The notes: generated from the sequence alone by a model not told the origin. A DNA stretch of 64,000 nt from an uncultured Gammaproteobacteria bacterium (GCA_964409875.1 CAYPEN010000005.1:11569-75568); one strand, 5' to 3'. Positions 4,137 to 23,256 are shown, numbered from the stretch's first letter. Numbers and translations are program-made.

Positions 4137-4400
4137 CTCGAACTTGTTCATCATGTTGAACTTTCTGCTAGTTAGGTGGGTGGGTGTCTGGAGGGAAGTC
4201 GAAGCGTGCAAAGCGCTCCGGCCGCGAACAAATCCGCTCGGCTTCCTTGCCTCGCTTGTGCCAATTCATGTCGAGCAACGTGGCCGGCCCGGCGAAGCAA
4301 AAGGCGTCCAGCCTTCTGCTTCGCCGGGCTCACCGCTTCAGTGCAATCGTCGTCCACTCTTCAGGCTGATCTCGCAGAAGTTCAACATGTTGAACTTTTA
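4137..4400. promoter_or_regulatory. Palindrome-rich region between mobC and parB1: candidate oriT and/or parS centromere
   Basis: Perfect 16-bp palindrome GTTCAACATGTTGAAC at 4380-4395 and a near-copy GTTCATCATGTTGAAC at 4146-4161 in inverted context (gcagaaaGTTCAAC... / gcagaaGTTCAAC...). A third half-site (catgttgaac) overlaps the mobC start at 4049-4058. Confidence 0.45.
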
Positions 4401-5405
4401 CCCCTCACCTTCCACGATCGCCTGAATGGCCACGGCCAGCAACGGCACTTCCAACGTCTCGCCGCTCGATAGCACTCGGATCCACCCTCGCCCGTATCGC
4501 GCCCGCCTTTGCAGCTCCAAATACGCGAGCTGGCCTTCGTAGGTCACTTCCAAGAGTGGTCTTCTAAGTTGGTCATCGGTTGTGCCAGCTGCCACAGTCG
4601 GAGTCACCGCGCTGCTGCCGTCAGCATTCCTGAGGGTTTCATCCAGAAGCGCAGTTTTTTGCTTCGCTGCGCCTTCCTCACCGGCAGCAATTGGCCCCTT
4701 CTGCCGTGGCAAAAGCTCCCTTTCTTGACCGACTTTTTCTTCCAGCGCGGCAACATCACGGCGAGCAATTGGCGCACCACGCTTACACAAGTTCTCAACC
4801 TCAACCGGCGCCTTCTTACTCAGCTGAATCAGGCTGTAAAGCGTCGCTACCTCGGTACACAGACCTGCCGCATAGACCTCCGCTATGTAGTCAGGCCATG
4901 ACAGCAGCGCACCGTGCATGGAAATGTAAGATTTCGATTTCCCCAATCGCTCGGCAATGAATTTGTCCTTGTCGCCGGCGCCCCTTCGCTTCTCAATGAA
5001 GCGGGCAATTTCCAAGGCGGTGAGATTGTTCCGCTGGATGTTCTCGACAACTTGCGCGAAATCGTCATGGCTGTCGTCGATAAACCCCGGAATCGTTGCC
5101 TTTCCGGCAAGAATACTGGCCCGGTAGCGCCGCGCACCGTGGTTGATCGTGTACTTCCCGCGCGCGTTCTTCGGTTTCACGGAAATGGGCACGCGCACTT
5201 TGTCGGCCTTGATCGACTCGGCTAACTCCCGCAAGGCATCTTCATCGAACGTCTGGCGCGGCTGATCAGGATCCTCCTCGATCGCGCCGAGACTGAACTC
5301 CATAGGTGCCCCAGTGGCCGCCGGAACTACCTGGGGTGCCCCAGCTTTCAGCAAATCTGAAAAGCCACTTTCCAAGGCAGATAAATCAAGCTCTGATCCG
5401 TTCAC
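4398..5405 (-). CDS. parB: ParB/KorB-family partition protein
   Basis: 335 aa. ParB-box-like motif (INHGARRYRAS), HTH (LTALEIARFI) and ...KSYISMHGALL. 4-nt overlap with the upstream parA. Confidence 0.8.
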   Translation of the reverse strand: MNGSELDLSALESGFSDLLKAGAPQVVPAATGAPMEFSLGAIEEDPDQPRQTFDEDALRELAESIKADKVRVPISVKPKNARGKYTINHGARRYRASILAGKATIPGFIDDSHDDFAQVVENIQRNNLTALEIARFIEKRRGAGDKDKFIAERLGKSKSYISMHGALLSWPDYIAEVYAAGLCTEVATLYSLIQLSKKAPVEVENLCKRGAPIARRDVAALEEKVGQERELLPRQKGPIAAGEEGAAKQKTALLDETLRNADGSSAVTPTVAAGTTDDQLRRPLLEVTYEGQLAYLELQRRARYGRGWIRVLSSGETLEVPLLAVAIQAIVEGEG

Positions 5406-6157
5406 GCTGCTTCTCCCATCCGTTGAAAAATCAGATCAATGGCCGCCTTAAACTCGGTGCCAGCCTCTCTCGCTGCCGTCTTTTTCAACTTCCACACGGG
5501 TATTCCAGCGGCCAGGGCTTCGGGGATACCCGAACGTATCCCAATCTTCGCCGGAATCATGTACTGCGCAAATTGCTTCAGTAATTGGGCGAGCGCAGCC
5601 TTTTGTCGCACGCTGTTAGGGTTGAATTTGTTCGGCAACATGCCCAGGAAATTGAGGTTTGCGTTGTATTTCTGCTTCACGCCAATAATGGTTTTCAGCA
5701 GCTTCTCAATGCCGTCGAGACTGTATTCCTCAAGCTCAATCGGTGCCAGAACGTGATCAGTCACGATGAACGCCGCGGTCATTCGCAGGCCCATTGTGGG
5801 CGGTGTATCGATAATGCAGATATCGAAGGCAGCTTTGTCCAGGTTCTGTAACTGACCGGCGAAAACCCCAATCACCCTGTTTTCCGCACGCTCGATATCG
5901 ACCATCTTTGCATCTGCCGCGATCAGCGTAATTCCGTCTTTGCCGCCCAGAATCACAGGCGCTGCCTCGAAGAGCTGGCTGGCAACGATCCCGCTGGAAT
6001 GCACCCCGAGAGTTTTGCTGCTGTTCCCCTGCGGGTCGATATCGATGTACAGGACGCGCTTGCCCGTTTCGACAAAACGGTAAGCCAGATGCACCCCGAT
6101 GGTGGTCTTCCCTACCCCGCCTTTTTGGTTCGCTATCACTAGCTTTTTCATGGCCAA
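5402..6157 (-). CDS. parA: ParA/IncC-family partition ATPase
   Basis: 251 aa. Deviant Walker A KGGVGKTT directly after the N-terminus, plus DIDPQGN. Confidence 0.85.
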   Translation of the reverse strand: MAMKKLVIANQKGGVGKTTIGVHLAYRFVETGKRVLYIDIDPQGNSSKTLGVHSSGIVASQLFEAAPVILGGKDGITLIAADAKMVDIERAENRVIGVFAGQLQNLDKAAFDICIIDTPPTMGLRMTAAFIVTDHVLAPIELEEYSLDGIEKLLKTIIGVKQKYNANLNFLGMLPNKFNPNSVRQKAALAQLLKQFAQYMIPAKIGIRSGIPEALAAGIPVWKLKKTAAREAGTEFKAAIDLIFQRMGEAA

Positions 6158-6717: not shown

Positions 6718-7608
6718 CTAGACCATAATTTTAAGCAGATATTCTTTGAGTTTTCCGTCGGGATCGTACTCGACCACGAGTTTCTCGGGGATACCCGATT
6801 TACCCTTGGGCTGGTAATCCAACGCGTATTCGGGCACTGGCTGGGTGGCAGCCATTTTCTTCAGCGTGCGCCGGAACTCGCGCAGCTCGCCGCGAGTGCC
6901 GAACTTGTCGTACAGCTTCTCAACGCTGATCTCCCAGATGGGCTGTCGACCACAGTGCTTGCGGCAGATTTCATACATGCGCCGCTCATTGGGTGAGCTC
7001 AGCTGAAAGTAATCGCGGGAATAGGTCAGTAGCCGCCGGTCGGAGATGGCGTTGTAGAGCCGCTCAGCAATGGTGACTTCGATGCTGGTCATACGACCGT
7101 TGGCCATATTGACCTCGGCATCGTCGATCAGTCCGAACACCACGCCGCGCTGATTCAGCTCGCCGTTGGCGCTCACATTGCTTTTGAACGTGGTGCCGCG
7201 CAGCCGCGCCAGGGTGTCGTGGATGCGCCGGTACTCGCGGCCCGATGTATCGCGGCCGGTGGCCGTCATGTAGTCGTAAGCGTTCAGCCGCACCCGCCGC
7301 CCCGTCTTGCGGCCACGGTTCATCGCTTCGGCCAGCTGTGAAATGCAGTAGATCAGCAAGTCTTTATCAAAGATGGTCGCCCGCCCGGCTGAGGATGGCA
7401 GGATTTCTATCCAGGCCCCGCTGACCGGGTTCTCGTAGCGAAAGGTCTCGGTGTCCGGATGCTTGGACAGAGCGAAGATGGGATATTCCATCGAGGTGAG
7501 GTCAGACTTCGGTGAAACGTCGATCAGCTCGGCGACGAACAGATCCAGCTGATCGGGAGCGCTGATAGCCGCCTCCCCTACCGTCTCCAGCAATTTTCCT
7601 TTTGCCAT
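6718..7608 (-). CDS. repA: Plasmid replication initiator protein (RepA / 'replication initiator protein A'-like)
   Basis: 296 aa. N-terminal DLFVAELIDVSPKSDLTSMEYPIFALSK is typical of RPA-type plasmid initiators. Gene abuts the iteron array. Confidence 0.65.
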   Translation of the reverse strand: MAKGKLLETVGEAAISAPDQLDLFVAELIDVSPKSDLTSMEYPIFALSKHPDTETFRYENPVSGAWIEILPSSAGRATIFDKDLLIYCISQLAEAMNRGRKTGRRVRLNAYDYMTATGRDTSGREYRRIHDTLARLRGTTFKSNVSANGELNQRGVVFGLIDDAEVNMANGRMTSIEVTIAERLYNAISDRRLLTYSRDYFQLSSPNERRMYEICRKHCGRQPIWEISVEKLYDKFGTRGELREFRRTLKKMAATQPVPEYALDYQPKGKSGIPEKLVVEYDPDGKLKEYLLKIMV

Positions 7609-8016
7609 CTAGGTGCTCCCGGTGTCCCCCAGGGGGACAGGTCTGATGAATTGCCGCCCGGCCGCTGCCAGTACGGCCTGGGTGATCGCTGTGCGCACGA
7701 TCGAACTGCGATCGATGATGCGCTCCGCCGACGTTAGCTGCTCGGCCAGCGCATTGATCTGAGCGACCAGCTGCGAGTCCATCGCCAACGGCAACGTGAC
7801 GGTCTTGCCGTCATAGAACTCTTCGCGCACCAAGTCTTCGCAGTCCGGATGGGCAAGCAGTGCTTCGCACGCATTGGCTATCCAGTTGCTGCGGCGCTTC
7901 AGTGACCATTCCTGCGCCACCATCGCCTGCTCCAGTGCGTCTTTCATACCGGCGGGCAGCCGAATGCTGGACCGAACCAGCGTTGCTCTCGGTGGCGGCG
8001 TGAACTTCTTAACCAT
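7609..8016 (-). CDS. Hypothetical small protein translationally coupled to rep (possible regulator)
   Basis: 135 aa. Its stop TAG is immediately followed by the rep ATG, and it overlaps parB2 by 8 nt. The TGTCCCCCAGGGGGACA palindrome sits in its last codons. Confidence 0.4.
   Translation of the reverse strand: MVKKFTPPPRATLVRSSIRLPAGMKDALEQAMVAQEWSLKRRSNWIANACEALLAHPDCEDLVREEFYDGKTVTLPLAMDSQLVAQINALAEQLTSAERIIDRSSIVRTAITQAVLAAAGRQFIRPVPLGDTGST
7613..7629. promoter_or_regulatory. Operator/parS-like palindrome TGTCCCCCAGGGGGACA (copy 1, 11 bp upstream of rep start)
   Basis: Perfect 17-bp palindrome. One of three copies of the same motif in the backbone. Confidence 0.5.
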
Positions 8017-9067
8017 CGACCTTCAACTCATCGATACGCGCCAGCAATACCTCGAAAGCGCGGTTCAGATCTTTCTGCCGGCTCAGGTCGAGCCCATCGA
8101 GCTCGGCGGTCAGGGCTTCGTCGTCTAGCTTCTCGGCGGCGGCCTTGATCAAGTAGGAAACCGCCCGGTAGTCCTTGGCCCGACCGACCCGCAGTGACGA
8201 CCCGGCACCCTGCGCGCTCTTGCTGACAGGTTTTTGCGGACCCAGCAGCTCTTTGATTTCGGCCACAGACAGCACCGCGATTTGGGCGGCGCGCTTGATA
8301 TTAGTTACCTGCCCCGCTTCAATCGCTTCGATCAACAGCGGCGAGGGGCAACGAATCACCGCCAGGTAGCGTTGGGCCACCGAGCGCGGCAGGCCGGACA
8401 ACGTCGCGAACTGGTTGACGCTGATCGCCTGCACACCCTTCCCGCTCTTCCAGGCCTCCATCAGCTGCCGCAGGTTGTCGATCTTCTCGAACAGCGACAA
8501 GTCGTCGCGATGGATATTCTCTTCCCACTGCAGCAGGTATTTTTCCAGCGCTGACGGCGCGGCCTCGCGAATGCGTGCGTCGATCATTGGCTCGCCCAAC
8601 AGCAGGTGCGCGAGCAACCGCCGTTCGCCGGCAATCAGATTGAACTGGGAGTCGTTCTGCCAGACCACGATCGGATGCAGTAACCGGTCGGCGCTTTTCA
8701 GTGCGAAGGCAAAGGCCGCAATTGATTGCAGATCCCCTACTGCCTTCCCGGAGAGTCCGCCATCGGCCTCGATCTGCTCAAGGTATTCGTCAAGGTAGGC
8801 GTCGTCGTCGCGGTTGAGCCGCTCGCGATCGATGGGAAAGCGCTGCGCCAGCGCGCCGATGTCGTCGGCGCTAAGTGCGAGCTTGCGTGGATTCAGCGCG
8901 TCTTCACGGATGTATTTCACCGGAATCCGCTTGACGTTGAGCGCCACCACTCCGCCCGCGGCCTTGATCTGCTCGGCGGCGCTCGTGGTCCAGCGCAGAG
9001 AACTTGATGCCGACTCGTCCACAGTGCCGGTACCGGCGCGTTTGGCGCCAAATTTCTTCACAGCCAT
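8009..9067 (-). CDS. parB: ParB/KorB-family protein (second partition/regulatory ParB)
   Basis: 352 aa. ParB box LIAGERRLLA followed by an HTH region. Confidence 0.75.
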   Translation of the reverse strand: MAVKKFGAKRAGTGTVDESASSSLRWTTSAAEQIKAAGGVVALNVKRIPVKYIREDALNPRKLALSADDIGALAQRFPIDRERLNRDDDAYLDEYLEQIEADGGLSGKAVGDLQSIAAFAFALKSADRLLHPIVVWQNDSQFNLIAGERRLLAHLLLGEPMIDARIREAAPSALEKYLLQWEENIHRDDLSLFEKIDNLRQLMEAWKSGKGVQAISVNQFATLSGLPRSVAQRYLAVIRCPSPLLIEAIEAGQVTNIKRAAQIAVLSVAEIKELLGPQKPVSKSAQGAGSSLRVGRAKDYRAVSYLIKAAAEKLDDEALTAELDGLDLSRQKDLNRAFEVLLARIDELKVDG

Positions 9068-9081
9068 TGGAATCCTCGCAG

Positions 9082-9102
9082 GGTGTCCCCCTGGGGGACA
9101 CC
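9082..9102. promoter_or_regulatory. Operator/parS-like palindrome GGTGTCCCCCTGGGGGACACC (copy 2, 15 bp upstream of parB2 start)
   Basis: Perfect 21-bp palindrome. Confidence 0.5.
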
Positions 9103-9182
9103 GGTTGAATCAGAGTCAGTTATGGGAGACACCAGTGCGATTGCGCGACTCCACGCAGAGAGCTCGAACGATCGTCGCTTAT

Positions 9183-10133
9183 TCATTGTGCGGCACGCCG
9201 CGCGCCTTCCAGAGGCACGACGCGCACCTTGCCGAAAATGCGCCCCAGCACAAACGCCCCGACCTTTTCAGCGGCAATGCGAGCGGCATGACTGGCTGGA
9301 ATCGCAAAAATTGACCGCGGGCTGATGCCCTTCAGGTCGCGCTCCGGGAACGCCGTCGACTGCGGCAGATAGGTGTCATCGGGCAGCATGATGTCGCTGA
9401 GCTGTTCCTGCAGCATGGTCAATGTGCCGCGATGCAGATTGGTGTTGGTGCGAACCTTGTTCGCACACAGCCCGACCAGCGCCAGCGCACTTCCACTGGG
9501 GCGCGAGAAGTTTTCCGACTGGATCGCCTGCAGCATCGCATTGATACCTTGTAGGCTCTTTTCCTCGGGTTCGAATGGAATGATCGCGTGCGTCGCCGCC
9601 CGAACCGCGGCTCGGAAAATCGGGTTTCGGCTGGGGCCGGTATCGAGAATGATCAGGTCATAAGTCTCAGCCACATCCGGCATGTGCAGGAACTCGCCGA
9701 GCCGGTTGATGATCTGCGAAGCGATTTTGCCGCTGGCATTGTCGAATTCGGTATTGATGGATTCGAGCAGAGCAGGGTGGCCGACCATGATGTCGACCGA
9801 GTGCTCAAAGCCATTTTCAGGGCAGATATAGGTTTTATGCGGTAACACGGCCTTGCCGTAGAAGATATCGGCGATCGAACTGCGTTCGGCAAGGTCCGGA
9901 TCGTTTTCGTAATCGGGGTGGCGGGGCGGAACCTGGCCGCCGGTGGCGGTTGGATCGGATTCCATGCCGATCCAGTAGTCGCTGGAGTTGCACTGCATAT
10001 CCAGGTCCACCACCAGAACATTCTTGCCGCCATGAATGGCAGCGTATTCGGCAATGACCGCAGCCAGCGTGGTTTTACCCACACCACCTTTCTGGTTCAG
10101 CACCGCGAGCACCTTGGAATGGTAGTGGAACAT
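9183..10133 (-). CDS. parA: ParA/IncC-family ATPase (second partition system)
   Basis: 316 aa. Walker A KGGVGKTT, then DLDMQCN. Confidence 0.8.
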   Translation of the reverse strand: MFHYHSKVLAVLNQKGGVGKTTLAAVIAEYAAIHGGKNVLVVDLDMQCNSSDYWIGMESDPTATGGQVPPRHPDYENDPDLAERSSIADIFYGKAVLPHKTYICPENGFEHSVDIMVGHPALLESINTEFDNASGKIASQIINRLGEFLHMPDVAETYDLIILDTGPSRNPIFRAAVRAATHAIIPFEPEEKSLQGINAMLQAIQSENFSRPSGSALALVGLCANKVRTNTNLHRGTLTMLQEQLSDIMLPDDTYLPQSTAFPERDLKGISPRSIFAIPASHAARIAAEKVGAFVLGRIFGKVRVVPLEGARRAAQ

Positions 10134-10255
10134 CCTGTACGCCCCTTTGTATACGCGGAATGTACGCGGACAATAACGCGCAGCTAATCACACGTCAACA
10201 ATAACATACGTGCTTTAGCGTCGGAGCCGGACAGAGAGGCAGTCAGCGAATTGGT

Positions 10256-10272
10256 ATCCCCCAGGGGGACAT
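10256..10272. promoter_or_regulatory. Operator-like palindrome ATCCCCCAGGGGGACAT (copy 3, upstream of parA2)
   Basis: Same core TCCCCCWGGGGGA as copies 1 and 2, with imperfect outer positions. Confidence 0.4.
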
Positions 10273-10325
10273 GCCAGCGCGAGTCGCGGATGCTGAAATG
10301 GCGGAGGAGGGCGCGTGGGCAAAGC

Positions 10326-10646
10326 CTAGTCACCCTTCCCGTAACGTTCCTTTGCGTCTTGCTCCATGCGTTTAACTATTGGAACCAGCTCATTGGGCAG
10401 GCAGACTTCAAACCGTTCCCATCCTTCAGGCGGTAGTAAACCGTTCTCCAGATGTGAAGCCCACACGCGCGCGACCATATTACTTATGCCCATCGCCGTG
10501 CGCTTGCCCTCTTCAATGAAGTCCTTCTGCTTGCAGCCATCCACCAGCACTGCTCGCGCAATGGCGACGTTCTCATCAGTCATAGCGCGTCGAATCCGGC
10601 TCACGGCCAGATCGAACTCACTCGTCGTAAGTTTCTTGGGCGCCAT
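10326..10646 (-). CDS. korA: KorA/TrfB-like plasmid transcriptional repressor
   Basis: 106 aa. Aligns by eye to RK2 KorA (LT.S.F..A..., IARGVLVDG, V.RVWA, LP.G, LP, E.DAK). Sits upstream of a parA-parB (incC-korB-like) pair, as in IncP-type control regions. Confidence 0.55.
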   Translation of the reverse strand: MAPKKLTTSEFDLAVSRIRRAMTDENVAIARAVLVDGCKQKDFIEEGKRTAMGISNMVARVWASHLENGLLPPEGWERFEVCLPNELVPIVKRMEQDAKERYGKGD

Positions 10647-10961
10647 ACCTGATAACTCCCATCAGAGTAAGTGGATATATAAAGATACTAATCCTTTAAA
10701 TATACCATTGCTGAGCCGTTTGGGTCTTTGCGGGTTAAACATCCGTTGATCGGGAGGAGCTATCTGAGAAAAAGACACTCAGGTTAATCTTGCAACCAAC
10801 TAAGGACAGTTGCCCGACCCCCAGGGCTGGGCGGCTTCCCAAGCAATCTGAGAGGCTGCAGAAATGGAATACAGCAACGAATCTTCCGCATTAACGGCTT
10901 AAGGCCAAGATCAATCGACACGTCGCCTTTGGATTTAAATGCGGACATGTCTGCATATTAA

Positions 10962-11282
10962 TTGGCGCTTTGCCCAGAGGGGCGCGATATGTTCGTTGTG
11001 ATTTTTCGAGCCAAAGTGCGGAGCGTTGATCAAGAGTATCCGGAAATTGCTGCGCGCTTACGTGATTTGGCCTTGGGCCAATTTGGGTGTCTAGAGTTTC
11101 ATTCGGTAACAGAGGGCCGAAATGAAGTTGCTCTCTCATATTGGGCTAGTGAAGAAAATATCCGCGCTTGGAAATCACATCCCGAACATATCGCGGCCCA
11201 ATCTCGCGGAAAGGAAATTTGGTATGAGTCATATTCTGTGCAAATTGTCAATATCACTCGCGAGTACGGCGCCAGCACCTAA
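10962..11282 (+). CDS. Antibiotic-biosynthesis-monooxygenase (ABM) domain protein
   Basis: ~100 aa. ABM-like pattern (FVVIFRAK...LEFHSV...ALSYWASEENIRAWKSHPEH). Lies in the low-GC island; the true start is possibly Met 10989. Confidence 0.5.
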   Translation: MALCPEGRDMFVVIFRAKVRSVDQEYPEIAARLRDLALGQFGCLEFHSVTEGRNEVALSYWASEENIRAWKSHPEHIAAQSRGKEIWYESYSVQIVNITREYGAST

Positions 11283-11318
11283 CCGGGTGCCCAAGCGGAC
11301 AGCAAAACGCTACGCCTT

Positions 11319-12425
11319 TTGTTCCCTCCGCAGCATTCCGGATGTCCGCTCAGTTTTGCGTTATATTTCGCTATGTCGGAGCAATGCATGAAGCTGGAGA
11401 CATTTGAAGATGTGCTTTCTTCTATTCGGAAGAATCCGAGGCGACAGTTTCATTTGCTTCTTGGGAATGGCTTTAGCGTTGCATACGATCCGGCAATTTT
11501 CTCATATAACGCATTGCACGATTTCGTCAAGAACGTCAATGATGGGGATCTTTCAAAGATCCTCGAAGTTATTGAGACGCGAAATTTTGAAGTGATAATG
11601 CAGTATTTGGACAACTTCGCGGCCTTGATAAATGCGTTCGGTGGTGAACCGAAGCTGAAGAAGCGGGTAGAGGCTGCAAGCGCCAAGCTGAAAAAAAGCC
11701 TGCTGGACGCCGTCAAGGCTATGCATCCAGAGCATGTCTTCAAAGTCCCGGAAGACCAAAGTATGGCGTGCGCCGCTTTTCTACAGAAATTCTTGGGTAC
11801 TACAGGAAGCATTTTTTCTACGAACTACGATTTGCTGTTGTATTGGGTTTTGATGCGAAACGGTATCGTGGATCACGTAGATGGCTGCGGCAGGGAGCTT
11901 GAGAATGATACAGGCGAGTATATGGCGCCAGAAGATCAGGAATGGTCTGAACTAATTTGGGGAATAAACCGCAATAAGCAAAATGTTTTCTATCTGCATG
12001 GGGCTCTTCCGTTTTTCGATAGTGGAGTTTCGGTAGTTAAGGAGGAGTACGATGTTTATAACTATCTGCTCGAAAATATCAGCGCAAGAATGGAGAACGG
12101 GGAGTATCCGATTTTCGTAACTGCTGGTGATGGCACGCAGAAACTAAACCACATTACTCATAATCAATATCTAACTTATTGCTACGACAATTTCTGTCAA
12201 ATGGAAGGCTCACTCGTTACCTATGGTTTCAGTTTCGGTCAGTACGATGAGCACATCATTGCCGCTATCAATAAAGCTGCAAAACAAAAGATTCCAAATA
12301 AGCTCTGGAGCATATACATCGGTGTCTACTCCCCTGAAGACAAAAAGCATATAGAACAAATTAAAGGAAAGTTTGCATGCAAAGTTCATGTCTTCGATGC
12401 GAAGACGGCAAACGTCTGGCGCTAG
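11319..12425 (+). CDS. SIR2-like (SIR2_2/DUF4917-type) putative NADase, candidate defence effector
   Basis: Motifs in SIR2_2 order: LLGNGFSVAYD (GAGxS-like), STNYDLLL (TTNYD) and YLHGALPFF (LHG, catalytic His). GC is ~45% against a ~59% backbone. Likely real start at Met 11373 or 11391. Confidence 0.5.
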   Translation: MFPPQHSGCPLSFALYFAMSEQCMKLETFEDVLSSIRKNPRRQFHLLLGNGFSVAYDPAIFSYNALHDFVKNVNDGDLSKILEVIETRNFEVIMQYLDNFAALINAFGGEPKLKKRVEAASAKLKKSLLDAVKAMHPEHVFKVPEDQSMACAAFLQKFLGTTGSIFSTNYDLLLYWVLMRNGIVDHVDGCGRELENDTGEYMAPEDQEWSELIWGINRNKQNVFYLHGALPFFDSGVSVVKEEYDVYNYLLENISARMENGEYPIFVTAGDGTQKLNHITHNQYLTYCYDNFCQMEGSLVTYGFSFGQYDEHIIAAINKAAKQKIPNKLWSIYIGVYSPEDKKHIEQIKGKFACKVHVFDAKTANVWR

Positions 12426-12525
12426 CGGCGTAGTCAAATATCGCAAAGAGTTCAAGTTTGTTCGCTGCGCTCACTGGGACTGCCAATACGCTACGCGTTT
12501 CGCCACCCCTTGAGCTCGCACTGTA

Positions 12526-13008
12526 TTGGAGCGCAAGAAAATGACCATCACGATTTCCGATGCAGTCAAACAAATGCTCGCAATAGTGGAGGAGCTTTGC
12601 GCTGCGTATCCACACAAAAAGTTCACACTCGATGGCCGTCTCGTGGGCGATATCGGGGAGGTGTTAGTTGAAGACGCATATGGTCTAAAGCTCTTCCCTG
12701 ATATCAAAAAACATCACGATGCAGAGTGCCCAGACGGGCGGCTTGTGCAGATCAAAGCCACAATGAAGAAAAGCCTAACGTTCCCCGCGGACCATGTTCC
12801 AAACTACTACCTCGGGGTTCAGGTAGGAGCAGACGGCACGTTCGTAGAAGTTTTCAACGGGCCTGGCGCTGTTGCTTGGGAAGCGGTAAAGGGCAGAGCC
12901 AAACCAAAGACCAACCTGCATTCCGTTCCAGTGGCCGCATTGGCAAAGCTTCAAAAGAAAGTGCGCCCGGAAGACCGCATCCCATTGCGCTCCAACAAGC
13001 CCCGGTGA
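12526..13008 (+). CDS. Small Mrr-like / PD-(D/E)xK nuclease-fold protein (partner of the SIR2-like gene)
   Basis: 160 aa. GDIGEVLVEDAYGL ... HHDAE ... LVQIKAT resembles the D...(E/Q)xK core of Mrr-catalytic-type restriction nucleases. Same strand as the SIR2-like gene, 100 bp downstream. Confidence 0.35.
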   Translation: MERKKMTITISDAVKQMLAIVEELCAAYPHKKFTLDGRLVGDIGEVLVEDAYGLKLFPDIKKHHDAECPDGRLVQIKATMKKSLTFPADHVPNYYLGVQVGADGTFVEVFNGPGAVAWEAVKGRAKPKTNLHSVPVAALAKLQKKVRPEDRIPLRSNKPR

Positions 13009-13063
13009 TCCAATCCACCTCAATTTCGAGCGCCATTTCTTCTAAGCGGGATCCACAGCTGCA

Positions 13064-13723
13064 TCACAATAGACTTACTTGCCGAGGCTGTGATGCCTTC
13101 CAGACTCTCTTGACCTGACTCTCACTGCAACCAGCCAATTTCGCCGTCCGGGCAATGCTAGTACCGGCCGATCGTAACGCGATGATTTGTTGATGCATGG
13201 CGACATCTGGTTGCCTGCCGGTGTACTTACCGGCCTGCTTTGCGAGCTGCACTCCTTGCCGTTGTCTTTCCCTCCGATCCTCGTAATCGTCGCGCGCGGC
13301 TTGTAGCGCCACCTTCAAAAGCATTTCTTGCACTGACTCCAGCACAACTTTCGAAACGCCTTTGGCATCCGCCGCAAGTTCGGATAGATCGATGATGCCC
13401 GGTACCGCCAACTTGGCGCCCTTGGCGCGAATCGAGCCAATCAGCTTCTCAGCATCGGGGAGGGGGAGGCGGCTGATCCGGTCGATCTTCTCGGCAATTA
13501 CCACTTCGCCAGGCTGCAGGTCGTCGATCATTCGCAATAGCTCTGGCCGGTCTGCACGCGCACCGGATGCCTTTTCCCGATAGATCCCAGCAACGTAGTA
13601 ACCGGCGTCTCGTGCCCCTTGCGAGAGACTCTCCTGGCGCCGCAAATCTTGTTCGTCGGTGCTGACCCGCATGTAGATGCGGGCCACTCGGATTTCAGAA
13701 TCTCTGGTCTTGGGTGATCGCAT
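13064..13723 (-). CDS. Serine recombinase (resolvase/invertase family)
   Basis: 219 aa. N-terminal catalytic motif YMRVSTDEQDL and a C-terminal HTH (TSIARTAKLAGCSESQVKR). Confidence 0.8.
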   Translation of the reverse strand: MRSPKTRDSEIRVARIYMRVSTDEQDLRRQESLSQGARDAGYYVAGIYREKASGARADRPELLRMIDDLQPGEVVIAEKIDRISRLPLPDAEKLIGSIRAKGAKLAVPGIIDLSELAADAKGVSKVVLESVQEMLLKVALQAARDDYEDRRERQRQGVQLAKQAGKYTGRQPDVAMHQQIIALRSAGTSIARTAKLAGCSESQVKRVWKASQPRQVSLL

Positions 13724-14305
13724 CGAAGTGTGCCTTCAGTAGGGCGTTTATAATGGACAAATAGGGTGTACCTAAATGCACCAACAATATCCGATGGGGC
13801 CAGAGCATGCAATGGCGATGTATATGCGCCTAGCTAATAATTCTGATTTATATGGACTAGGTGCGAAGTAAAGTCGGGCAGCACCGGTCATCGGTTCCAA
13901 AGGCCGTGACCGAAATAGAGCGCCGATATGTCGGCGCGTTTGTGCGTCGGCTCTGAGGGGTTCGGTAGCCGATCTAGAGCTGTATCGGCTAAACAGGAAA
14001 GCGGGGGAGGGTGTGCGCAGACCCTTGCGAATCTTACGGCAGAGTTGTTCTTTCAAGCTGGTCGTCTATTCGAACGCATGGTCGACCAGGCGCGCCAACA
14101 CAACACCATCATCGACCGAAGTTCGGCCAAAGCGGTCTATCTAGACATTTCAATTTACAGCGGTCGACACTCAGAAAGCAGACATTCACTTACTAGACTT
14201 AATGTTTTGAAGGTGAATGACGCTGATGGCGCGTGCAGCACATTTTTGCGCCATGGTTTTTGGGTATCGTTGCATGATTAACTAATTCAAAAAGCAACGA
14301 CAACA

Positions 14306-14728
14306 TTAAGAATGGCAAACGCAGTTTTCACCATCCGCCGCTGCATTGAGCGTTTGCAAAATGCCGCAATCTTCCGCCTGCCGATGTTCGCTGCAGCGGG
14401 CTTGCAGCAGCAATAACTGTTGTTCGAGATGTTGCAGTTGCTCAATGCGTTGCCGCACTTGGTTCACATGCGTTGCGACGAGTTGATTAATTTCGTCGCA
14501 CGCAAGATCAGGGTGTTCGCGATAATTCAGCAGCGAACGAATTTCCGGTAGCGACAAATCCAATGATCGGCAATGACGAATAAATTGCAGCGCCTCGCGA
14601 TGTGTTGCGCCGTACTGTCGATAACCAGCATCTGTACGCGGTGGCGCCGGTAGCAAACCTTCGTGCTCATAAAAACGAATGGTCGGAACATCAACGCCGG
14701 TTGTTTTGGCCAGCTCACCGATTTGCAT
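14306..14728 (-). CDS. cadR: MerR-family heavy-metal-responsive regulator (CadR/ZntR/PbrR-like)
   Basis: 140 aa. MerR HTH (MQIGELAKTTGVDVPTIRFYEHEGLLP) and C-terminal metal-binding cysteines (CVCHS). Divergent from a P1B-ATPase gene. Confidence 0.8.
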   Translation of the reverse strand: MQIGELAKTTGVDVPTIRFYEHEGLLPAPPRTDAGYRQYGATHREALQFIRHCRSLDLSLPEIRSLLNYREHPDLACDEINQLVATHVNQVRQRIEQLQHLEQQLLLLQARCSEHRQAEDCGILQTLNAAADGENCVCHS

Positions 14729-14810
14729 AATTTGCCTCCCATTGCTTGACCCTAGAGTAGCTAGAGGGTTTTAAATCCACAATATCACTGTTTCCACTGA
14801 GACCCGTGTA
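14729..14810. promoter_or_regulatory. Divergent cadR/cadA MerR-type promoter with 19-bp spacer and dyad operator
   Basis: TTGACC-ctagagtagctagagggtt-TTAAAT: -35 and -10 separated by 19 bp. The dyad ACCCTAGAG/CTAGAGGGT resembles CadR/ZntR operators. Confidence 0.55.
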
Positions 14811-17003
14811 ATGGATTCTCCCGATAGTTGTTGCGGTTCAAAGTCGTCTTGTGCGGCACCGATACCCTTGGCCGAGGCGACCACCGCTACCAACGGCACT
14901 CGAACGGTAGTGCGCATCGACGGTATGGATTGCCCTACGGAGGAGAACTTGATTCGTGGCAAGTTCACTTCATTCCCTGGCGTAATCGGACTGGAATTCA
15001 ATCTGCTCCAGCGCTTGCTAACACTCATCCACACGCCTGAGGCACTGCCTCGCGCTCTGGATGCTTTGCGCGGGCTCGGTTTTGATCCGGTGGTGCAAGC
15101 TGATAACGCCACCCCGAGTGAGTTGGTCGAACCCCCGGCACTCAATCGTCGGGAGCTGGCATTACTGAGTCTGTCGGGCTTGTGTGCAGTAGCGGCCGAG
15201 ATGATCAACTGGGCAAGCGGCTCGCTCTGGCTCGAAATTGCGCTCAGCTTGGTCGCGGTTTTCAGCGGCGGCCTCGGCACCTATAAAAAAGGCTGGATTG
15301 CGCTCAAAAACCGCACACTCAACATCAACGCCCTAATGTCAGTGGCTGTTACAGGCGCGCTGTTGATTGGTCAGTGGCCCGAAGCCGCGATGGTGATTGT
15401 GTTGTTTGCGATCGCCGAACTGATCGAAAAGGTTTCACTAGAGCGTGCGCGCAACGCGGTGCGCGGTCTGATGGCGATGACGCCGGAAACGGTCAGCGTT
15501 CGCCAGCCCGATAACAGCTGGCGCGATGTCATGGCTGACGAAGTGGCTGTTGGCGCTGTGATGCGCGTGCGCCCCGGCGAGCGGGTTGCGCTGGACGGCG
15601 TTGTTACTCAAGGGCAATCGAACCTGAATCAGGCGCCGATCACCGGTGAAAGTATTCCTGTCGAAAAAAGCGTTGGCGATTCGGTCTATGCCGGCAGTAT
15701 CAACGAAGCTGGGGCTCTGGAGGTGCGAGTTACTGCCGCCAGCACGGACTCAACTGTTGCTCGCATCATTCATGCGGTCGAAGCGGCGCAAGGCAGCCGC
15801 GCACCGACCCAGCGCTTCGTCGATCAATTCGCGAAGATCTACACGCCGGTCGTGTTCGTGCTGGCTATCGCCATTGCCATACTACCGCCGCTATTGTTCG
15901 ATGGATTGTGGCTAACTTGGATTTACCGTGCGCTGGTGTTGCTGGTTATCGCGTGTCCTTGCGCGCTGGTGATTTCAACACCCGTCACGGTGGTGAGTGG
16001 TCTCGCTGCAGCGGCGCGACGCGGTATTTTGATTAAAGGCGGCGCCTTTCTCGAAGCGGGTCGCAATCTCAAAGTGATGGCGCTCGATAAGACCGGTACG
16101 CTCACCATGGGCAAGCCCACCGTTGTCGATTTTCTGCCGTTTGCCGACCGCGGGACTACGTTGCGTCAGGCGGCGAGTCTGGCCAGCCACTCGGATCATC
16201 CGGTGTCACAGGCCGTTACCCGATTCGCCGATGGGCACACACAGCTTGCCGAGCCTATTGCCATGCAGGCACTGCCGGGGCGTGGTGTTAAAGCCGAGAT
16301 CGAGGGGCAACTGCTGTATCTTGGCAATCATCGCCTGGTCGAAGATTTAAAGATCTGCAGTCCTGCGCTGGAAGCACAGTTAAAAGCACTGGAAAGCCAG
16401 GGCAAAACGACCACACTGCTGATGAGCGAGAGTCAAGTGCTCGGGGTATTTGGTGTCGCTGACACCGTGCGCGAAAGCAGTAAGCAAGCCGTGGCCGAAC
16501 TGCACGCGCTGGGTATTACCACCTCGATGCTGACTGGCGACAATCCACTCACGGCAAAGGCAATCGCGGCTCAAGTCGGCATCGATATCGTAGAAGCCGA
16601 ATTATTGCCCGCTGACAAACTGGCCGCGATCGAAGCGATGGCGGCTCAATACGGTGCCATCGGCATGGTGGGCGACGGCATCAACGATGCGCCCGCACTG
16701 GCGCGCGCAGACATCGGTTTTGCGATGGGTGCAGCGGGCTCCGATACCGCGCTCGAAACAGCGGATGTCGCGTTGATGGATGATGACCCGCGCAAGCTGG
16801 CTGAATTTATCCGGCTGAGCCGAAACACTGCGGCGATATTGCGTCAGAACATCGTGTTGGCGTTGAGCATCAAGGCCGTGTTTTTTGTGCTCGCTGTGCT
16901 TGGCACTGCGACGCTGTGGATGGCAGTGTTTGCCGACATGGGCGCGAGCTTGCTTGTGGTGGCCAATGGGTTGCGCTTGCTGAAATTGGGCAAGCCGCGA
17001 TGA
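14811..17003 (+). CDS. cadA: Cd/Zn/Pb-translocating P1B-type ATPase
   Basis: 730 aa. N-terminal HMA-like GMDCPTEE, CPC motif (IACPCALVISTP), DKTGTLT phosphorylation site and GDGINDAPAL. Confidence 0.9.
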   Translation: MDSPDSCCGSKSSCAAPIPLAEATTATNGTRTVVRIDGMDCPTEENLIRGKFTSFPGVIGLEFNLLQRLLTLIHTPEALPRALDALRGLGFDPVVQADNATPSELVEPPALNRRELALLSLSGLCAVAAEMINWASGSLWLEIALSLVAVFSGGLGTYKKGWIALKNRTLNINALMSVAVTGALLIGQWPEAAMVIVLFAIAELIEKVSLERARNAVRGLMAMTPETVSVRQPDNSWRDVMADEVAVGAVMRVRPGERVALDGVVTQGQSNLNQAPITGESIPVEKSVGDSVYAGSINEAGALEVRVTAASTDSTVARIIHAVEAAQGSRAPTQRFVDQFAKIYTPVVFVLAIAIAILPPLLFDGLWLTWIYRALVLLVIACPCALVISTPVTVVSGLAAAARRGILIKGGAFLEAGRNLKVMALDKTGTLTMGKPTVVDFLPFADRGTTLRQAASLASHSDHPVSQAVTRFADGHTQLAEPIAMQALPGRGVKAEIEGQLLYLGNHRLVEDLKICSPALEAQLKALESQGKTTTLLMSESQVLGVFGVADTVRESSKQAVAELHALGITTSMLTGDNPLTAKAIAAQVGIDIVEAELLPADKLAAIEAMAAQYGAIGMVGDGINDAPALARADIGFAMGAAGSDTALETADVALMDDDPRKLAEFIRLSRNTAAILRQNIVLALSIKAVFFVLAVLGTATLWMAVFADMGASLLVVANGLRLLKLGKPR

Positions 17004-17046
17004 GTTTTCCGCGCGCCGCTGACTTAGCGTTGTTGCTGTCTCACAC

Positions 17047-17448
17047 TTGTGCCAGACTTCGTTGATGCGCGCGTTACGTCAATCCTCTTGGTTTATTGCT
17101 CTGCTGTGTGTGCTCTTGATCGGCGCACGTATCAGCGGTGCGCATTGGCATTTGTGTTTAGATCGTACCGAGCCGCCACTTGCACTGCATGTCGGCGACA
17201 TTGATCAACACGACGACGATTCATCCTCCAACGCTCCACATCAAGATGTTGATTTAAAGCTGGTCGATGATGGTCTGATCAAAAACTTACTGAGCGGCCT
17301 CGATGCGCCCATGCTGCTCACGTTAATTCTGTGCGTATGGCTATTGCCGCGTCGTGTTCAATCAGTACCGCTTTCGCACTACCGTGTCCCTACATTTCTC
17401 AACGATCCTCGTTCACTGCACGCGCCACCGCGTGCACCTCCGCTCTAA
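17047..17448 (+). CDS. czcI: CzcI-like / DUF2946-type small signal-anchored protein
   Basis: 133 aa. N-terminal hydrophobic anchor then HWHLC motif. Position directly upstream of czcCBA matches czcI. Confidence 0.35.
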   Translation: MCQTSLMRALRQSSWFIALLCVLLIGARISGAHWHLCLDRTEPPLALHVGDIDQHDDDSSSNAPHQDVDLKLVDDGLIKNLLSGLDAPMLLTLILCVWLLPRRVQSVPLSHYRVPTFLNDPRSLHAPPRAPPL

Positions 17449-17515
17449 CTCCCACATCCATCACCTCGTGATTATTCGCGCCTGACGGCGCTGTTATTTC
17501 TGTGGGAGTTTTTCT

Positions 17516-18793
17516 ATGTCTTGTCTCTGGACGCGCGGGCTTATCGCGTGTGTCGGGGCGTTGTCGCTGACGTTATCCGTCGCGCACGCCGCTGATTTTA
17601 TGGAACCGCGTGGCGAATTAACGCTGACGGATGCGATCGCTGCGGCGATGCAACGCAATCCGTCGTTGCGAAACGCCGATTTTGAAATTCGCGCCGCCGA
17701 TGCGCGTATCACACAAGCGCAATTGCGGCCCAATCCTGAATTGGGCGTGACGCTAGAGAATTTCGGTGGCAGCGGCAATTTGCGTGGCACCGATACTCTC
17801 GAATCGACGTTGACGCTGAGTCAGGTCATCGAACTTGGCGGTAAGCGTAGTCGCCGTGCGGATGCCGCACGCTATGGTCGCGACAGTGCGAGCATCGAGC
17901 GCGAATCAGCACAACTCGATGTGCTCGCCGATGTCACGCGCCGTTTTATCGATGTGGCCGAACAACAAGAACAATTGTTGCTGACGCGCAAGGCGACCGA
18001 ATTAGCGGAAAAAACACTGGCCGCAATTACTGCGCGTGTGGATGCAGCGCGCGCACCGCTTGCGGAAAAAAGTCGAGCCACGATTGCACTCGGTCGAGCG
18101 TGTCTGGAGCAACAGCAAGCCGAACAATCACTGCTCACAGCGCATCGCCGCCTCGCCGCGTTATGGGGTAGCACTGAGCCGCGTTTTGGCGATGCCAAAA
18201 ACGATATGTTCGACCTGCCTGCCGTTGCGAGTTTCGACAATCTGACTACAAGGTTGCAATCGAGTCCCGATTTTTTGCGTTTCACCAGTGAAAGCCGACT
18301 GCGCGATGCCGAGTGGCAATTAGCGATGGCGCAGGCGAAATCCGATGTGACCGTTGGTGCCGGTCTGCGACGTTTCGAGGAAACCGGCGATAACGGTTTT
18401 GTGGTGAATTTCTCGATGCCATTGCCGTTCGCCAATCGCAACCAAGGCGCAATCCGCGAAGCCTCGATTCGACGCGATCAGGTGCAAGTACAACAGCAAG
18501 CGGCATTCATTACGACACAAGCCAATCTGTTCGAGTTCTATCAGCAATTGCAGCTCGCGCGCACCGAAGTCACGAGTCTTCGCACGCAATTAATTCCGCA
18601 AGCCGAATTAGCGCTGAAACAAACGCACGATGGTTACGAGCGCGGTCGCTTTTCGTATTTGGAATTAGCAGACGCGCAACGCGAATTACTCGAACTGCAA
18701 CGCACGGCCATTGCCGCTGCCGCCACCTATCACCGCGTGCTCGCCGAAATCGAACGCTTGACCAATACGTCGCTTGCGGCGACTCAGGATTAA
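17516..18793 (+). CDS. czcC: Outer-membrane efflux protein, heavy-metal RND system
   Basis: 425 aa with a signal peptide, TolC/OEP-family length and composition. First gene of a CBA operon. Confidence 0.8.
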   Translation: MSCLWTRGLIACVGALSLTLSVAHAADFMEPRGELTLTDAIAAAMQRNPSLRNADFEIRAADARITQAQLRPNPELGVTLENFGGSGNLRGTDTLESTLTLSQVIELGGKRSRRADAARYGRDSASIERESAQLDVLADVTRRFIDVAEQQEQLLLTRKATELAEKTLAAITARVDAARAPLAEKSRATIALGRACLEQQQAEQSLLTAHRRLAALWGSTEPRFGDAKNDMFDLPAVASFDNLTTRLQSSPDFLRFTSESRLRDAEWQLAMAQAKSDVTVGAGLRRFEETGDNGFVVNFSMPLPFANRNQGAIREASIRRDQVQVQQQAAFITTQANLFEFYQQLQLARTEVTSLRTQLIPQAELALKQTHDGYERGRFSYLELADAQRELLELQRTAIAAAATYHRVLAEIERLTNTSLAATQD

Positions 18794-20067
18794 TGCTCAT
18801 GAACTTACCTACGTCACTGCTTAAACCCATTTTCCCATTGCTTGCCGTGATCATCTTGCTCACTGGTTGTAGCAAAGCGCCATCCACTGCGTCTGCTGAA
18901 GCAGACGAGCACGGCGATCACGCAGAATCCGAAGCTGTCGAATTTGAGCGCGGACCGCACAATGGACGGTTACTGCGCGAAGGCGATTTCGCCGTCGAAC
19001 TCACCATTTTTGAAAACGGCGTTCCGCCCGAGTTTCGCGTGTACATGACGCACGAAGGCAAACCGATCAAGCCGGCGACGACCGCGCTCAGCATTCAACT
19101 CAATCGCTTTGCCGGTGTGGTGGATCAACACAGCTTCGCAGTAAAAGACGATTACTTGGTCAGTAAAGCCGAGGTGTACGAACCGCACTCATTCGATGTG
19201 ACGGTGATTGCTGAATACGACGGCCATCGTCATCGCTGGACCTATGCCTCCTACGAAGGTCGCACCGTTATCGATGCCGCCATGGCAAAAACGCAAGGCA
19301 TCGCAACGCAGCCTGTCGGTACCGGCAACATCAAGGAGCGTGTCGCGCTTTACGGCACGATCCAGCCCGATGCCACGCGGGTGCGGTCTGTCGTCGCGCG
19401 CTTTCCAGGTGTGATTCGCAGCGTCGATGCCGCGCTCGGCGAGCAGGTTCGCGCCGGCCAAACACTGGCGCGCATCGAAAGCAACGAAAGTTTGCAAACC
19501 TACACCGTGACAGCGCCAATCGCCGGCACGGTTATCCAGCGTCACGCCAACCCCGGTGAAGCCACCGGATCGGAGCCATTGTTTGAAATCGCCGACTACA
19601 CGCAGGTGTGGGCGCTGCTGAATGTCTTCCCACGCGATCGTGCGCGCATCCATACCGGCCAGGCCGTGGCGATTAACGCGGCCGATGGCGCGGCCATTGG
19701 CACTGGCACCATCGCCGCCATCGGTGTCGGTACCAACACGCCATCGTCGCTCAGCGCGCGCGTGATTCTCGATAATCGCAATGCGCAATGGACACCAGGG
19801 CAATTCGTCAACGCGGAAGTGACCGTCGCCGAAACCGCAGCGCCGTTGGTGTTGCCGATCAGTGCGCTGCAAACCTTTCGCGGCTGGGACGTGGTGTTTC
19901 TGAATACCGGCGACACCTACCAAGCACAGCCTGTTGAGCTTGGAAAGCGCGATGGCGAGGTGGTGGAAATTACCGGCGGCTTGAGTGCGGGCATGCCAGT
20001 AGTCGTTGCCAACTCTTATCTGGTGAAGGCCGATATCGAAAAGTCGGGAGCGAGTCATGACCATTAA
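18793..20067 (+). CDS. czcB: Membrane fusion (periplasmic adaptor) protein, HlyD/CzcB family
   Basis: 424 aa. N-terminal anchor, His-rich region after the anchor (DEHGDHAESE) and a biotinyl/beta-barrel adaptor pattern. Its start overlaps the czcC stop. Confidence 0.8.
   Translation: MLMNLPTSLLKPIFPLLAVIILLTGCSKAPSTASAEADEHGDHAESEAVEFERGPHNGRLLREGDFAVELTIFENGVPPEFRVYMTHEGKPIKPATTALSIQLNRFAGVVDQHSFAVKDDYLVSKAEVYEPHSFDVTVIAEYDGHRHRWTYASYEGRTVIDAAMAKTQGIATQPVGTGNIKERVALYGTIQPDATRVRSVVARFPGVIRSVDAALGEQVRAGQTLARIESNESLQTYTVTAPIAGTVIQRHANPGEATGSEPLFEIADYTQVWALLNVFPRDRARIHTGQAVAINAADGAAIGTGTIAAIGVGTNTPSSLSARVILDNRNAQWTPGQFVNAEVTVAETAAPLVLPISALQTFRGWDVVFLNTGDTYQAQPVELGKRDGEVVEITGGLSAGMPVVVANSYLVKADIEKSGASHDH

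Positions 20068-23256
<3,189 letters not shown>

Follow-up and report, generated by a model that had tools for sequence, protein, structure and literature searches.

The window, a stretch of 64,000 nucleotides from an uncultured Gammaproteobacteria bacterium (GCA_964409875.1 CAYPEN010000005.1:11569-75568), harbors a low-GC island with three genes on the plus strand, encoding an ABM-domain (antibiotic biosynthesis monooxygenase-like) protein, a SIR2-like protein of the DUF4917 family and a nuclease-like protein of the DUF6998 family. This island is probably the decayed, integrase-less remnant of an integron array with three independent cassettes, in which the SIR2 gene and the nuclease gene are separate one-gene defense candidates. 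The initial annotation of the locus had described these two genes as a two-gene cassette of a SIR2 protein and a small Mrr-like nuclease. The claim of a novel SIR2-nuclease pair does not hold, and the locus is not a new kind of system. ABM, DUF4917 and DUF6998 genes each circulate elsewhere as integron gene cassettes.

The ABM open reading frame (ORF; 10989-11282, 97 aa; Pfam ABM, E 1.2e-6) is the first recognizable cassette of the island, and its homologues are all about 97 aa long. The DUF4917 gene extends from 11388 to 12425 (345 aa) and the DUF6998 gene from 12541 to 13008 (155 aa). The plus-strand ORFs annotated initially at 11319-12425 and 12526-13008 are present, but their starts are the ATG codons at 11388, as set by the homologues (close ones all comprise 344-357 aa), and at 12541, where an identical contig from a public run shows the same gene call. 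The GC content is 0.43-0.49 over about 10750-12750 versus 0.59-0.62 in the left-flanking partition genes, and a foreign origin of the low-GC block is supported. The block of about 45% GC in a backbone of about 59% that had been noted before is a real trough, but the dip is uneven (ABM 0.47, DUF4917 0.44, DUF6998 0.53, resolvase 0.57) and the mean of the window is 0.55 instead of 0.59.

The pairing of the two genes was assessed in 80 loci each with flanks of up to 8 kb, retrieved with the DUF4917 profile from species-representative genomes and with the DUF6998 profile from metagenome contigs. Every ORF of the 80 + 80 loci was searched with both profile hidden Markov models (HMMs). At least 1.2 kb of flank was available downstream in 71/80 DUF4917 loci and on one side in 53/80 DUF6998 loci. 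Within ±8 kb, a DUF6998 gene was present in none of the 80 DUF4917 loci and a DUF4917 gene in none of the 80 DUF6998 loci. The partner was also absent from the 88-91%-identical relatives of each gene. DUF4917 genes with 88% identity adjoin an insertion sequence and a reverse transcriptase (Denitratisoma) or an HNH-AP2 gene (Thiobacillus), while DUF6998 genes with 89-90% identity adjoin a DUF433/DUF5615 pair or a GmrSD-like gene and one with 76% identity is located in a DarT/HEPN island. The largest cluster of neighbors covers 11/80 DUF4917 loci (HsdM/HsdS) and at most 7/80 DUF6998 loci; neither gene has a conserved partner. The initial annotation had itself proposed to check neighborhood conservation and had named genes that are never co-conserved as the outcome speaking against the pair, which is what was found. 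DUF4917 and DUF6998 are separate one-gene modules and not partners.

A new two-gene anti-phage system, in which for example a nuclease sensor is coupled to an NADase effector, is therefore hardly credible, even though the two genes are plus-strand neighbors 115 nt apart, both structural models resemble defense-type folds and the upstream spacers of both genes have an element of about 50 nt in common. Besides the missing co-occurrence and the partnerless close relatives, the SIR2 gene stands alone in its PADLOC model, GC content differs between the genes (0.44 vs 0.53), and the common spacer element is accounted for by attC cores of the same family, as shown below.

The mobility signature, which the initial annotation missed, is carried by integron attC sites. 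In the homologous loci, the DNA that is conserved with DUF4917 and with DUF6998 starts in each case only 20-40 nt 5' of the ATG. On the 3' side of DUF4917, several unrelated contigs contain GTGAAACATAAC, which exactly matches the conserved upstream boundary GTTATGTTTCAC in reverse complement; next come GGTCRAG, a hairpin, CTTACC and GTTRRRY. RNAalifold analysis of 12 curated sites yielded two stems, R''/R' and L''/L' with a single unpaired base, and compensatory changes at three pairs (GC/AU 6:6, AU/GC 8:4 and GC/CG 8:4). These paired R and L stems are the architecture of attC sites. A covariance model built from the 12 curated sites detected 31 significant attC sites in DUF4917 loci, 21 in DUF6998 loci and 12 in ABM loci, most of them outside the training set, and 64/64 are located on the strand of the anchor gene.

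A complete integron was found in Gallionella (L017), where IntI (TIGR02249, 472 bits vs a cut-off of 265) is divergent from an array of about 13 sites and DUF4917 lies between the attC sites at 7896-7958 and 9049-9135. In Solimonas terrae (L013, 6419-9038) IntI (473 bits) is the immediate upstream neighbor of DUF4917, in divergent orientation, which would make DUF4917 the first cassette; the attC type of this integron is not recognized by the covariance model, so the cassette counts are lower bounds. For ABM, contig L173 encodes an IntI (465 bits) whose first cassette is an 84%-identical ABM gene. DUF6998 is flanked by significant attC sites in L085, L087, L089, L092, L098, L099, L101, L154 and L166, and among the 11 DUF6998 loci of at least 78% identity six have significant flanking or nearby sites.

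Two of the homologous loci show further features. The closest metagenomic DUF6998 homologue (91% identity; L085, 937-1998) is preceded by a TIR/ThsB-like cassette and has significant attC sites on both sides; this locus is a small array of defense-type cassettes. On the chromosome of Denitratisoma oestradiolicum (L002, 7038-8915; also in L003) the attC site after DUF4917 seems to be split, with R''/L'' right after the stop codon, then a 500-aa RVT_1 ORF (7353-8855) and the significant remainder of the attC at 8850-8915. This arrangement looks like a group IIC-attC intron that has inserted into an attC site.

Within the window, the attC of the ABM cassette is located at 11277-11366 (plus strand), as assigned by orthology to the attC of L173. 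It comprises R'' ACCTAAC (11277-11283), which overlaps the ABM stop codon, L'' GCCCAAG (11289-11295), L' CTCAGT (11349-11354) and R' GTTATAT (11360-11366). The R boxes are intact and the L boxes carry substitutions. By weight matrices as well as by the covariance model this is the top attC-like site of the 64 kb. It is identical at 75 of 90 nt to the ABM attC of L173, which is equally 90 nt long and significant (E 3e-7), and both begin 5 nt before the ABM stop codon. The homology between the two contigs stops at the R' crossover (GCGTTA^, with the caret marking the break), beyond which each continues with a different cassette. In the window, the conserved 5' boundary of the DUF4917 cassette, G^TTAT(G/A)TTTC(A/G)C, is found there, at 11360-11371.

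The presumed attC of the DUF4917 cassette (12438-12531, plus strand) is decayed and was located by the aligned ends in homologous loci. Its R'' reads ATATCGC (12438-12444) in place of ACATAAC, a change of AAC to CGC, and its R' reads ATTGGAG (12525-12531) in place of GTTGGAG, a change of GTT to ATT; L'' GTTCAAG (12450-12456) and L' CTTGAGC (12509-12515) still pair. Over the first 34 nt past the DUF4917 stop codon, the window can be aligned with the beginnings of the attC sites that follow DUF4917 in L170 and L002, and at the R' position with the GTTGGAGCGCAA boundary in front of DUF6998 in L085 and L166. The central 50 nt or so of the site resemble the ABM attC, and this likeness of the two spacers reflects attC cores of the same family. 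A 17-nt repeat within them was considered as an operator or promoter common to both genes and was rejected, as it occurs in only two copies in the window and is absent beside the homologues; it is interpreted as the hairpin tip of same-family attC sites. As single strands, the two spacers fold no better than shuffled sequences (z -0.75 to +0.9).

The attC of the DUF6998 cassette is represented by its R'' box GCTCCAAC at 12989-12996 (plus strand, within 12989-12999), inside the end of the DUF6998 ORF. The homologues likewise contain this box inside the ORF end, followed by L'' CTCAAG and a hairpin, and L085, L087, L166 and L089 run on through ...CGCTCCAACAAGG(C/T)GCTCAAGCCGAC... into significant attC sites. 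The window keeps ...CGCTCCAACAAG and diverges after ...CCAACAAG at 12999; a new stop codon is reached 9 nt further on. Judged from this alignment, the third attC is truncated and position 12999 represents the right-hand junction between island and backbone. On the other side of the array, upstream of ABM, the stretch 10888-10965 reads 'GCATTAAC..GGCCAAG...AATTGGC' and gives no match to the covariance model. It could be a further decayed attC, which would imply another or an ORF-less cassette to the left.

Several of the following results weigh against an integron origin of the island. The weight-matrix score of 22.6 for 11277-11366 is inside the range of shuffled sequences (13.0 ± 3.5, maximum 26.2), and the covariance model gives this site only 11.3 bits (E about 1). 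The same model does not detect 12438-12531 at E ≤ 10. The left edge lies between 10650 and 10980, with homology to other ABM cassettes starting about 8 nt before the ATG. A strict attC regular expression (RYYYAAC...GTTRRRY with paired boxes) found nothing near the DUF4917 or the DUF6998 gene, which is explained by the departure of the real boxes (ACATAAC/GTTATGT) from the strict consensus. Nothing informative came from a relaxed symmetric finder, and a loose regular expression gave many false positives, so that curated sites, weight matrices and the covariance model were used instead. No IntI was found in the window; the best tblastn match of the Gallionella IntI has an E of 0.019 over 36 aa (62323-62430, minus strand). 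This match corresponds to the C-terminal catalytic region, and an unrelated tyrosine recombinase ORF (62269-62895) may be its source.

Acquisition without an integron, for example through a transposon, capture by a resolvase or simple illegitimate recombination, with coincidental attC-like features, would agree with the lack of an integrase, the insignificant scores, the missing crossover triplets of the second site and the undefined left boundary. It is nevertheless very improbable. Across its 90 nt, the first site has 83% identity with a significant attC that accompanies ABM in a bona fide integron, and the break falls at the crossover. In addition, all three genes are cassettes elsewhere, with boundaries that match those of the window within a few nucleotides. 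Moreover, the resolvase next to the island belongs to the plasmid backbone. This serine recombinase gene (13064-13723, minus strand) encodes a ParA multimer resolvase that is about 78% identical at the protein level to IncP-1-type ParA and matches more than 4900 plasmids; IncP-1-type ParA is annotated beside a parB nuclease. The initial annotation correctly placed an ABM gene upstream and a serine resolvase downstream of the pair, but the resolvase is located on the opposite strand, has a backbone-like GC content and is a plasmid stability gene that does not suggest a mobilizable cassette. It was thus ruled out as the mobilizer of the cassettes.

Under the preferred interpretation as an integron remnant, ABM, DUF4917 and DUF6998 would be three promoterless cassettes in the same orientation between korA and the ParA multimer-resolvase gene of the conjugative plasmid. 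A single sigma-70-like site was found in the island region versus 4.2 expected, which is consistent with promoterless cassettes. In an intact integron, DUF4917 and DUF6998 would be expressed from Pc. The decay of the attC sites appears to be progressive, from the first with intact R boxes to the second without the AAC/GTT crossover triplets and the third, which ends after R''. Together with the absence of an integrase, this decay indicates that the array is probably frozen in place.

Integron cassettes encoding phage defense (BRiCs), including a 'putative dimeric restriction endonuclease', have been described, as have integrase-less arrays (CALINs) and pseudo-attC sites with a crossover-point mismatch outside integrons (Kieffer et al. 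2025; Darracq et al. 2025; bioRxiv 10.1101/2024.07.02.601719). Owing to the absence of intI from the window, the island is a CALIN-like relic. It resembles these examples in that compact single-gene defense candidates occur as attC-bounded cassettes in a plasmid-borne array with a crossover-point mismatch in a pseudo-attC. It differs in that integrase, Pc and attI are absent, the attC sites are decayed or truncated and the defense role is a prediction. Neither the DUF4917 nor the DUF6998 protein was found in the searched supplement of Kieffer et al. BRiCs, CALINs and pseudo-attC sites were thus known before, and so was the SIR2 gene as a PADLOC entry. What is new is modest, namely that DUF4917, DUF6998 and ABM circulate as cassettes in environmental integrons, that DUF6998 is structurally BisI/PvuII-like and that the plasmid carries a frozen relic of three cassettes. 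The locus adds an environmental, non-clinical case to integron cassettes as a shuttle for defense genes and shows how cassettes become fixed on plasmids while their attC sites decay.

The larger protein matches Pfam DUF4917 over the entire profile (positions 1-311/311, E 2.5e-42, 145.9 bits vs a cut-off of 28). The match spans residues 46-367 of the 368-aa ORF that begins at 11319, and no additional domains were found. Pfam SIR2_2 is matched just above its cut-off (25.8 vs 24.5 bits, E 1.2e-5). The strongest match is the PADLOC model PDC-S21 (PDLC04960; E 3.2e-110, positions 1-334/336), whereas the PADLOC SIR2 models give only weak partial matches (E ≥ 1.6e-5). The SIR2 motifs noted initially, GNGFS, STNYD and LHGAL, are indeed present, and 18 homologues of 74-100% identity show no variation at G26-N27-G28, S144-T145-N146-Y147-D148 or H204-G205. 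Pfam and PADLOC scans also bear out that SLOG, TIR, HerA and Argonaute domains are absent from the protein and its neighbors. These results support a DUF4917 protein that probably adopts the SIR2 fold, retains the NAD-site motifs and lacks a sensor domain. The statement that the gene belongs to no named system has to be corrected, as PADLOC already catalogues it as the single-gene candidate PDC-S21. This is one of 145 'phage defence candidates' identified by guilt-by-embedding in BREX, DISARM and type I restriction-modification (R-M) loci and put into PADLOC, as predictions, for future study (Payne et al. bioRxiv 10.1101/2024.01.29.577857). In PLSDB plasmids, the DUF4917 subfamily of the window is absent above 31% identity.

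The full-length HMM match and the lack of a conserved partner are shared with PDC-S21, whose homologues are located beside or within type I R-M loci. Recurrent neighbors in the 80 DUF4917 loci are HsdM/S, HsdR, type III Res-like and GmrSD genes, which agrees with the basis on which PDC-S21 was defined. In contrast, the gene of the window and its closest relatives are integron cassettes and are not embedded in R-M loci. With the defense NADases ThsA, DSR1/DSR2, SIR2-HerA (Nezha) and the SIR2-APAZ protein of SPARSA, the protein shares the GxG and (T/S)xN(Y)D motifs and the catalytic histidine, probably the SIR2 fold and presumably also NAD+ hydrolysis as an abortive-infection effector. Unlike in Thoeris, it is a single-domain protein without SLOG and no TIR-domain ThsB is adjacent. 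Unlike in DSR1/DSR2, SIR2-HerA and SPARSA, its 345 aa include no sensor extension of about 1000 aa, HerA or Argonaute, and its neighbors are ABM, DUF6998 and the ParA resolvase. The gene product is predicted to be an NAD+-consuming single-gene defense effector. By analogy with ThsA, DSR1/2 and SIR2-HerA, it would most likely hydrolyze NAD+ on infection and thereby abort phage replication. As a partner or sensor domain is lacking, sensing would have to reside in the poorly modeled helical insertion or in oligomerization of the protein.

Other observations do not favor this role. The fold evidence is weak when taken alone. The AlphaFold model has a pLDDT of 59.9 and a TM score of about 0.4 in Foldseek and is of low confidence, which is attributed to the shallow alignment supplied, and a sequence search of the Protein Data Bank (PDB) with the DUF4917 protein returned nothing. 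PDC-S21 is only a listed candidate, and a literature search found no mention of it by name. A PADLOC search of ten other cassettes of the Gallionella array gave no match and hence no evidence that the array is a defense island. In addition, SliP of Campylobacter jejuni (Cjj81176_0779), the one DUF4917 protein that has been characterized, has been reported as a secreted NAD-dependent deacetylase (PMC10421069).

The latter finding raises the alternative that the protein of the window is a deacetylase or another non-defense sirtuin and thus adaptive cargo rather than an anti-phage NADase. SliP has a reported role in neutrophil activation (PMC10421069), no phage assay exists for PDC-S21, and most cassettes of the same integron arrays lack a defense annotation. 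This alternative is considered unlikely. Every PDB match of the low-confidence model at E ≤ 0.001 in Foldseek contains a SIR2 domain, with SIR2-HerA at the top (E 6e-7), then human FAM118B. Matches to DSR2, SIRT2 and ThsA have weaker E-values. Defense NADases come first among these structural neighbors, ahead of SIRT2. Homologues are repeatedly located beside type I/III R-M and GmrSD genes, and sliP itself shares an operon with the gene of a type I R-M R subunit (PMC10421069). Finally, SliP is described as a host-directed deacetylase and virulence factor that is related to the protein of the window at the level of the Pfam family, whereas the latter derives from an environmental plasmid without a link to an animal host. 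By its place next to a type I R-M gene, sliP shows the 'embedded' signature on which the definition of PDC-S21 is based; an anti-phage role was not considered in PMC10421069, and SliP may merit an anti-phage test.

The smaller protein belongs to Pfam DUF6998 (E 1e-47), a family for which about 1100 relatives were detected. The initial assignment as Mrr-like is not supported, as Mrr_cat is not matched at E ≤ 0.1 and the structural neighbors are BisI and PvuII. Similarity to Mrr is restricted to the PD-(D/E)xK fold, the Q-x-K variant of the last motif and independence of a methylase; the N-terminal winged-helix DNA-binding domain is also missing. NhoI and Eco15I are BisI-family modification-dependent restriction endonucleases that act as homodimers and have PvuII as their nearest conventional relative. 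The BisI-family active site consists of a helix glutamate, an xD motif and QVK/QIK and has been validated by mutation. Further characteristics of this family are a methyl-binding (H/R)(V/I/T/M) motif and the cutting of multiply methylated GCNGC. Predicted catalytic residues of the DUF6998 protein are E40 (in 'GDIGE'), D60 (in 'HHD') and Q70-I71-K72, and in the structural model E40, D60 and Q70-x-K72 are positioned in helix 34-47, strand 59-62 and strand 68-74, respectively. The nuclease core GDIGE-HHD-VQIKAT proposed initially is therefore a PD-(D/E)xK core as stated, with a QxK variant, but its catalytic aspartate is D60 of strand 2 and GDIGE provides the helix glutamate. In the structure search, the best matches and the longest alignments were obtained with BisI-family enzymes and PvuII. 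In the model, the protein shows the PvuII-like protomer fold together with the helix-Glu, xD and Q-x-K active site. Thus, DUF6998 is modeled as a PvuII/BisI-like PD-(D/E)xK nuclease that forms a distinct sequence family.

On the sequence level this kinship is faint. DUF6998 is a separate Pfam family, and its similarity to the BisI family is not significant, with an E of 0.84-1.0 for Eco15I and no retrieval of NhoI at E ≤ 10. In the weak HMMER alignment (E about 1), GDIGE, HD and QIKA of DUF6998 fall on GDyaE, aD and QIKA of Eco15I. The sole sequence bridge to BisI-type enzymes is a weak match to the PADLOC model mREase_II (E 1.3e-6), and a PDB sequence search gave insignificant matches only. 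A literature search found no paper mentioning DUF6998. Moreover, defense genes are only modestly enriched beside DUF6998. Its neighbors are heterogeneous and many are metabolic, with scattered defense genes (TIR/ThsB-like, GmrSD/HEC-06, MADS, SspE, AriA, type III restriction endonuclease, DarTG/HEPN). It is conceivable, though rather doubtful, that DUF6998 serves outside restriction and defense, for example as a toxin, as a homing or selfish endonuclease, or in junction resolution or repair. This reading is disfavored by the structural matches and the QIK variant identical to that of BisI-family enzymes, by the mREase_II match, by the defense genes among the neighbors, by the lack of an antitoxin-like conserved partner and by the phage genomes, in which a tblastn search of 50,697 records gave no match. 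PHROG families of unknown function match the DUF4917 and the DUF6998 protein (phrog_30889, E 1e-33, and phrog_35225, E 7e-42, respectively); given the tblastn result for DUF6998, PHROG members may be prophage-borne.

The DUF6998 protein is accordingly best described as a predicted solitary, restriction-like endonuclease of the PvuII/BisI-like homodimer type. It would most likely act as a homodimeric, Mg2+-dependent enzyme with an E-D-QxK metal site. No DNA methyltransferase gene is present in the island, and no such family recurs among the 150 neighbors of the 80 DUF6998 loci. As no methylase is nearby, the enzyme would most likely cut DNA carrying a modification that the host lacks, in the manner of type IV or IIM-like restriction.

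Taken further, DUF6998, as a widespread but unstudied family of solitary BisI/PvuII-like enzymes with a new modification-dependent specificity, and DUF4917, as a sensor-less minimal SIR2 NADase, might both be single-gene anti-phage BRiCs that are exchanged by environmental Betaproteobacteria and occasionally become fixed on conjugative plasmids. This broader proposal is tentative and we regard it as possible rather than probable. If the functional predictions are correct, the island provides two compact, easily cloned single-gene defense candidates. DUF4917/PDC-S21 would be a minimal SIR2 enzyme that has to be activated without the help of a known partner, and the BisI-type kinship of DUF6998 would suggest a new modification-dependent restriction specificity and a possible reagent.

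The remainder of the window is that of a conjugative plasmid, with a relaxase, VirB4 and a coupling protein. To the left of the island, two complete ParA/ParB(KorB)-type partition modules plus KorA are encoded at 4398-6157 and 8009-10646, and an RPA-family replicase at 6718-7608. The co-residence of an Abi gene and a zeta toxin reported initially was confirmed, with an Abi_2 family gene at 402-1379 and a zeta-toxin-domain gene (392 aa) at 35735-36913. At the DNA level, the island has no relative in PLSDB, where only weak resolvase matches were obtained. Megablast against PLSDB found no relative of the 10.7-kb backbone upstream of the island either, hence a comparison with an 'empty site' is not available. 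Right after the resolvase, a metal-resistance block (14306-23256) encodes a MerR-family regulator, a P-type ATPase, an outer-membrane factor and a Czc-like RND pump. A 29-nt imperfect palindrome (within 14059-14108), which may be a res site or a MerR operator, occurs in the 580 nt that separate merR from the ParA resolvase gene. Weak matches of the attC regular expression and the covariance model at 14069-14127, at the level of noise, overlap this palindrome region near merR.

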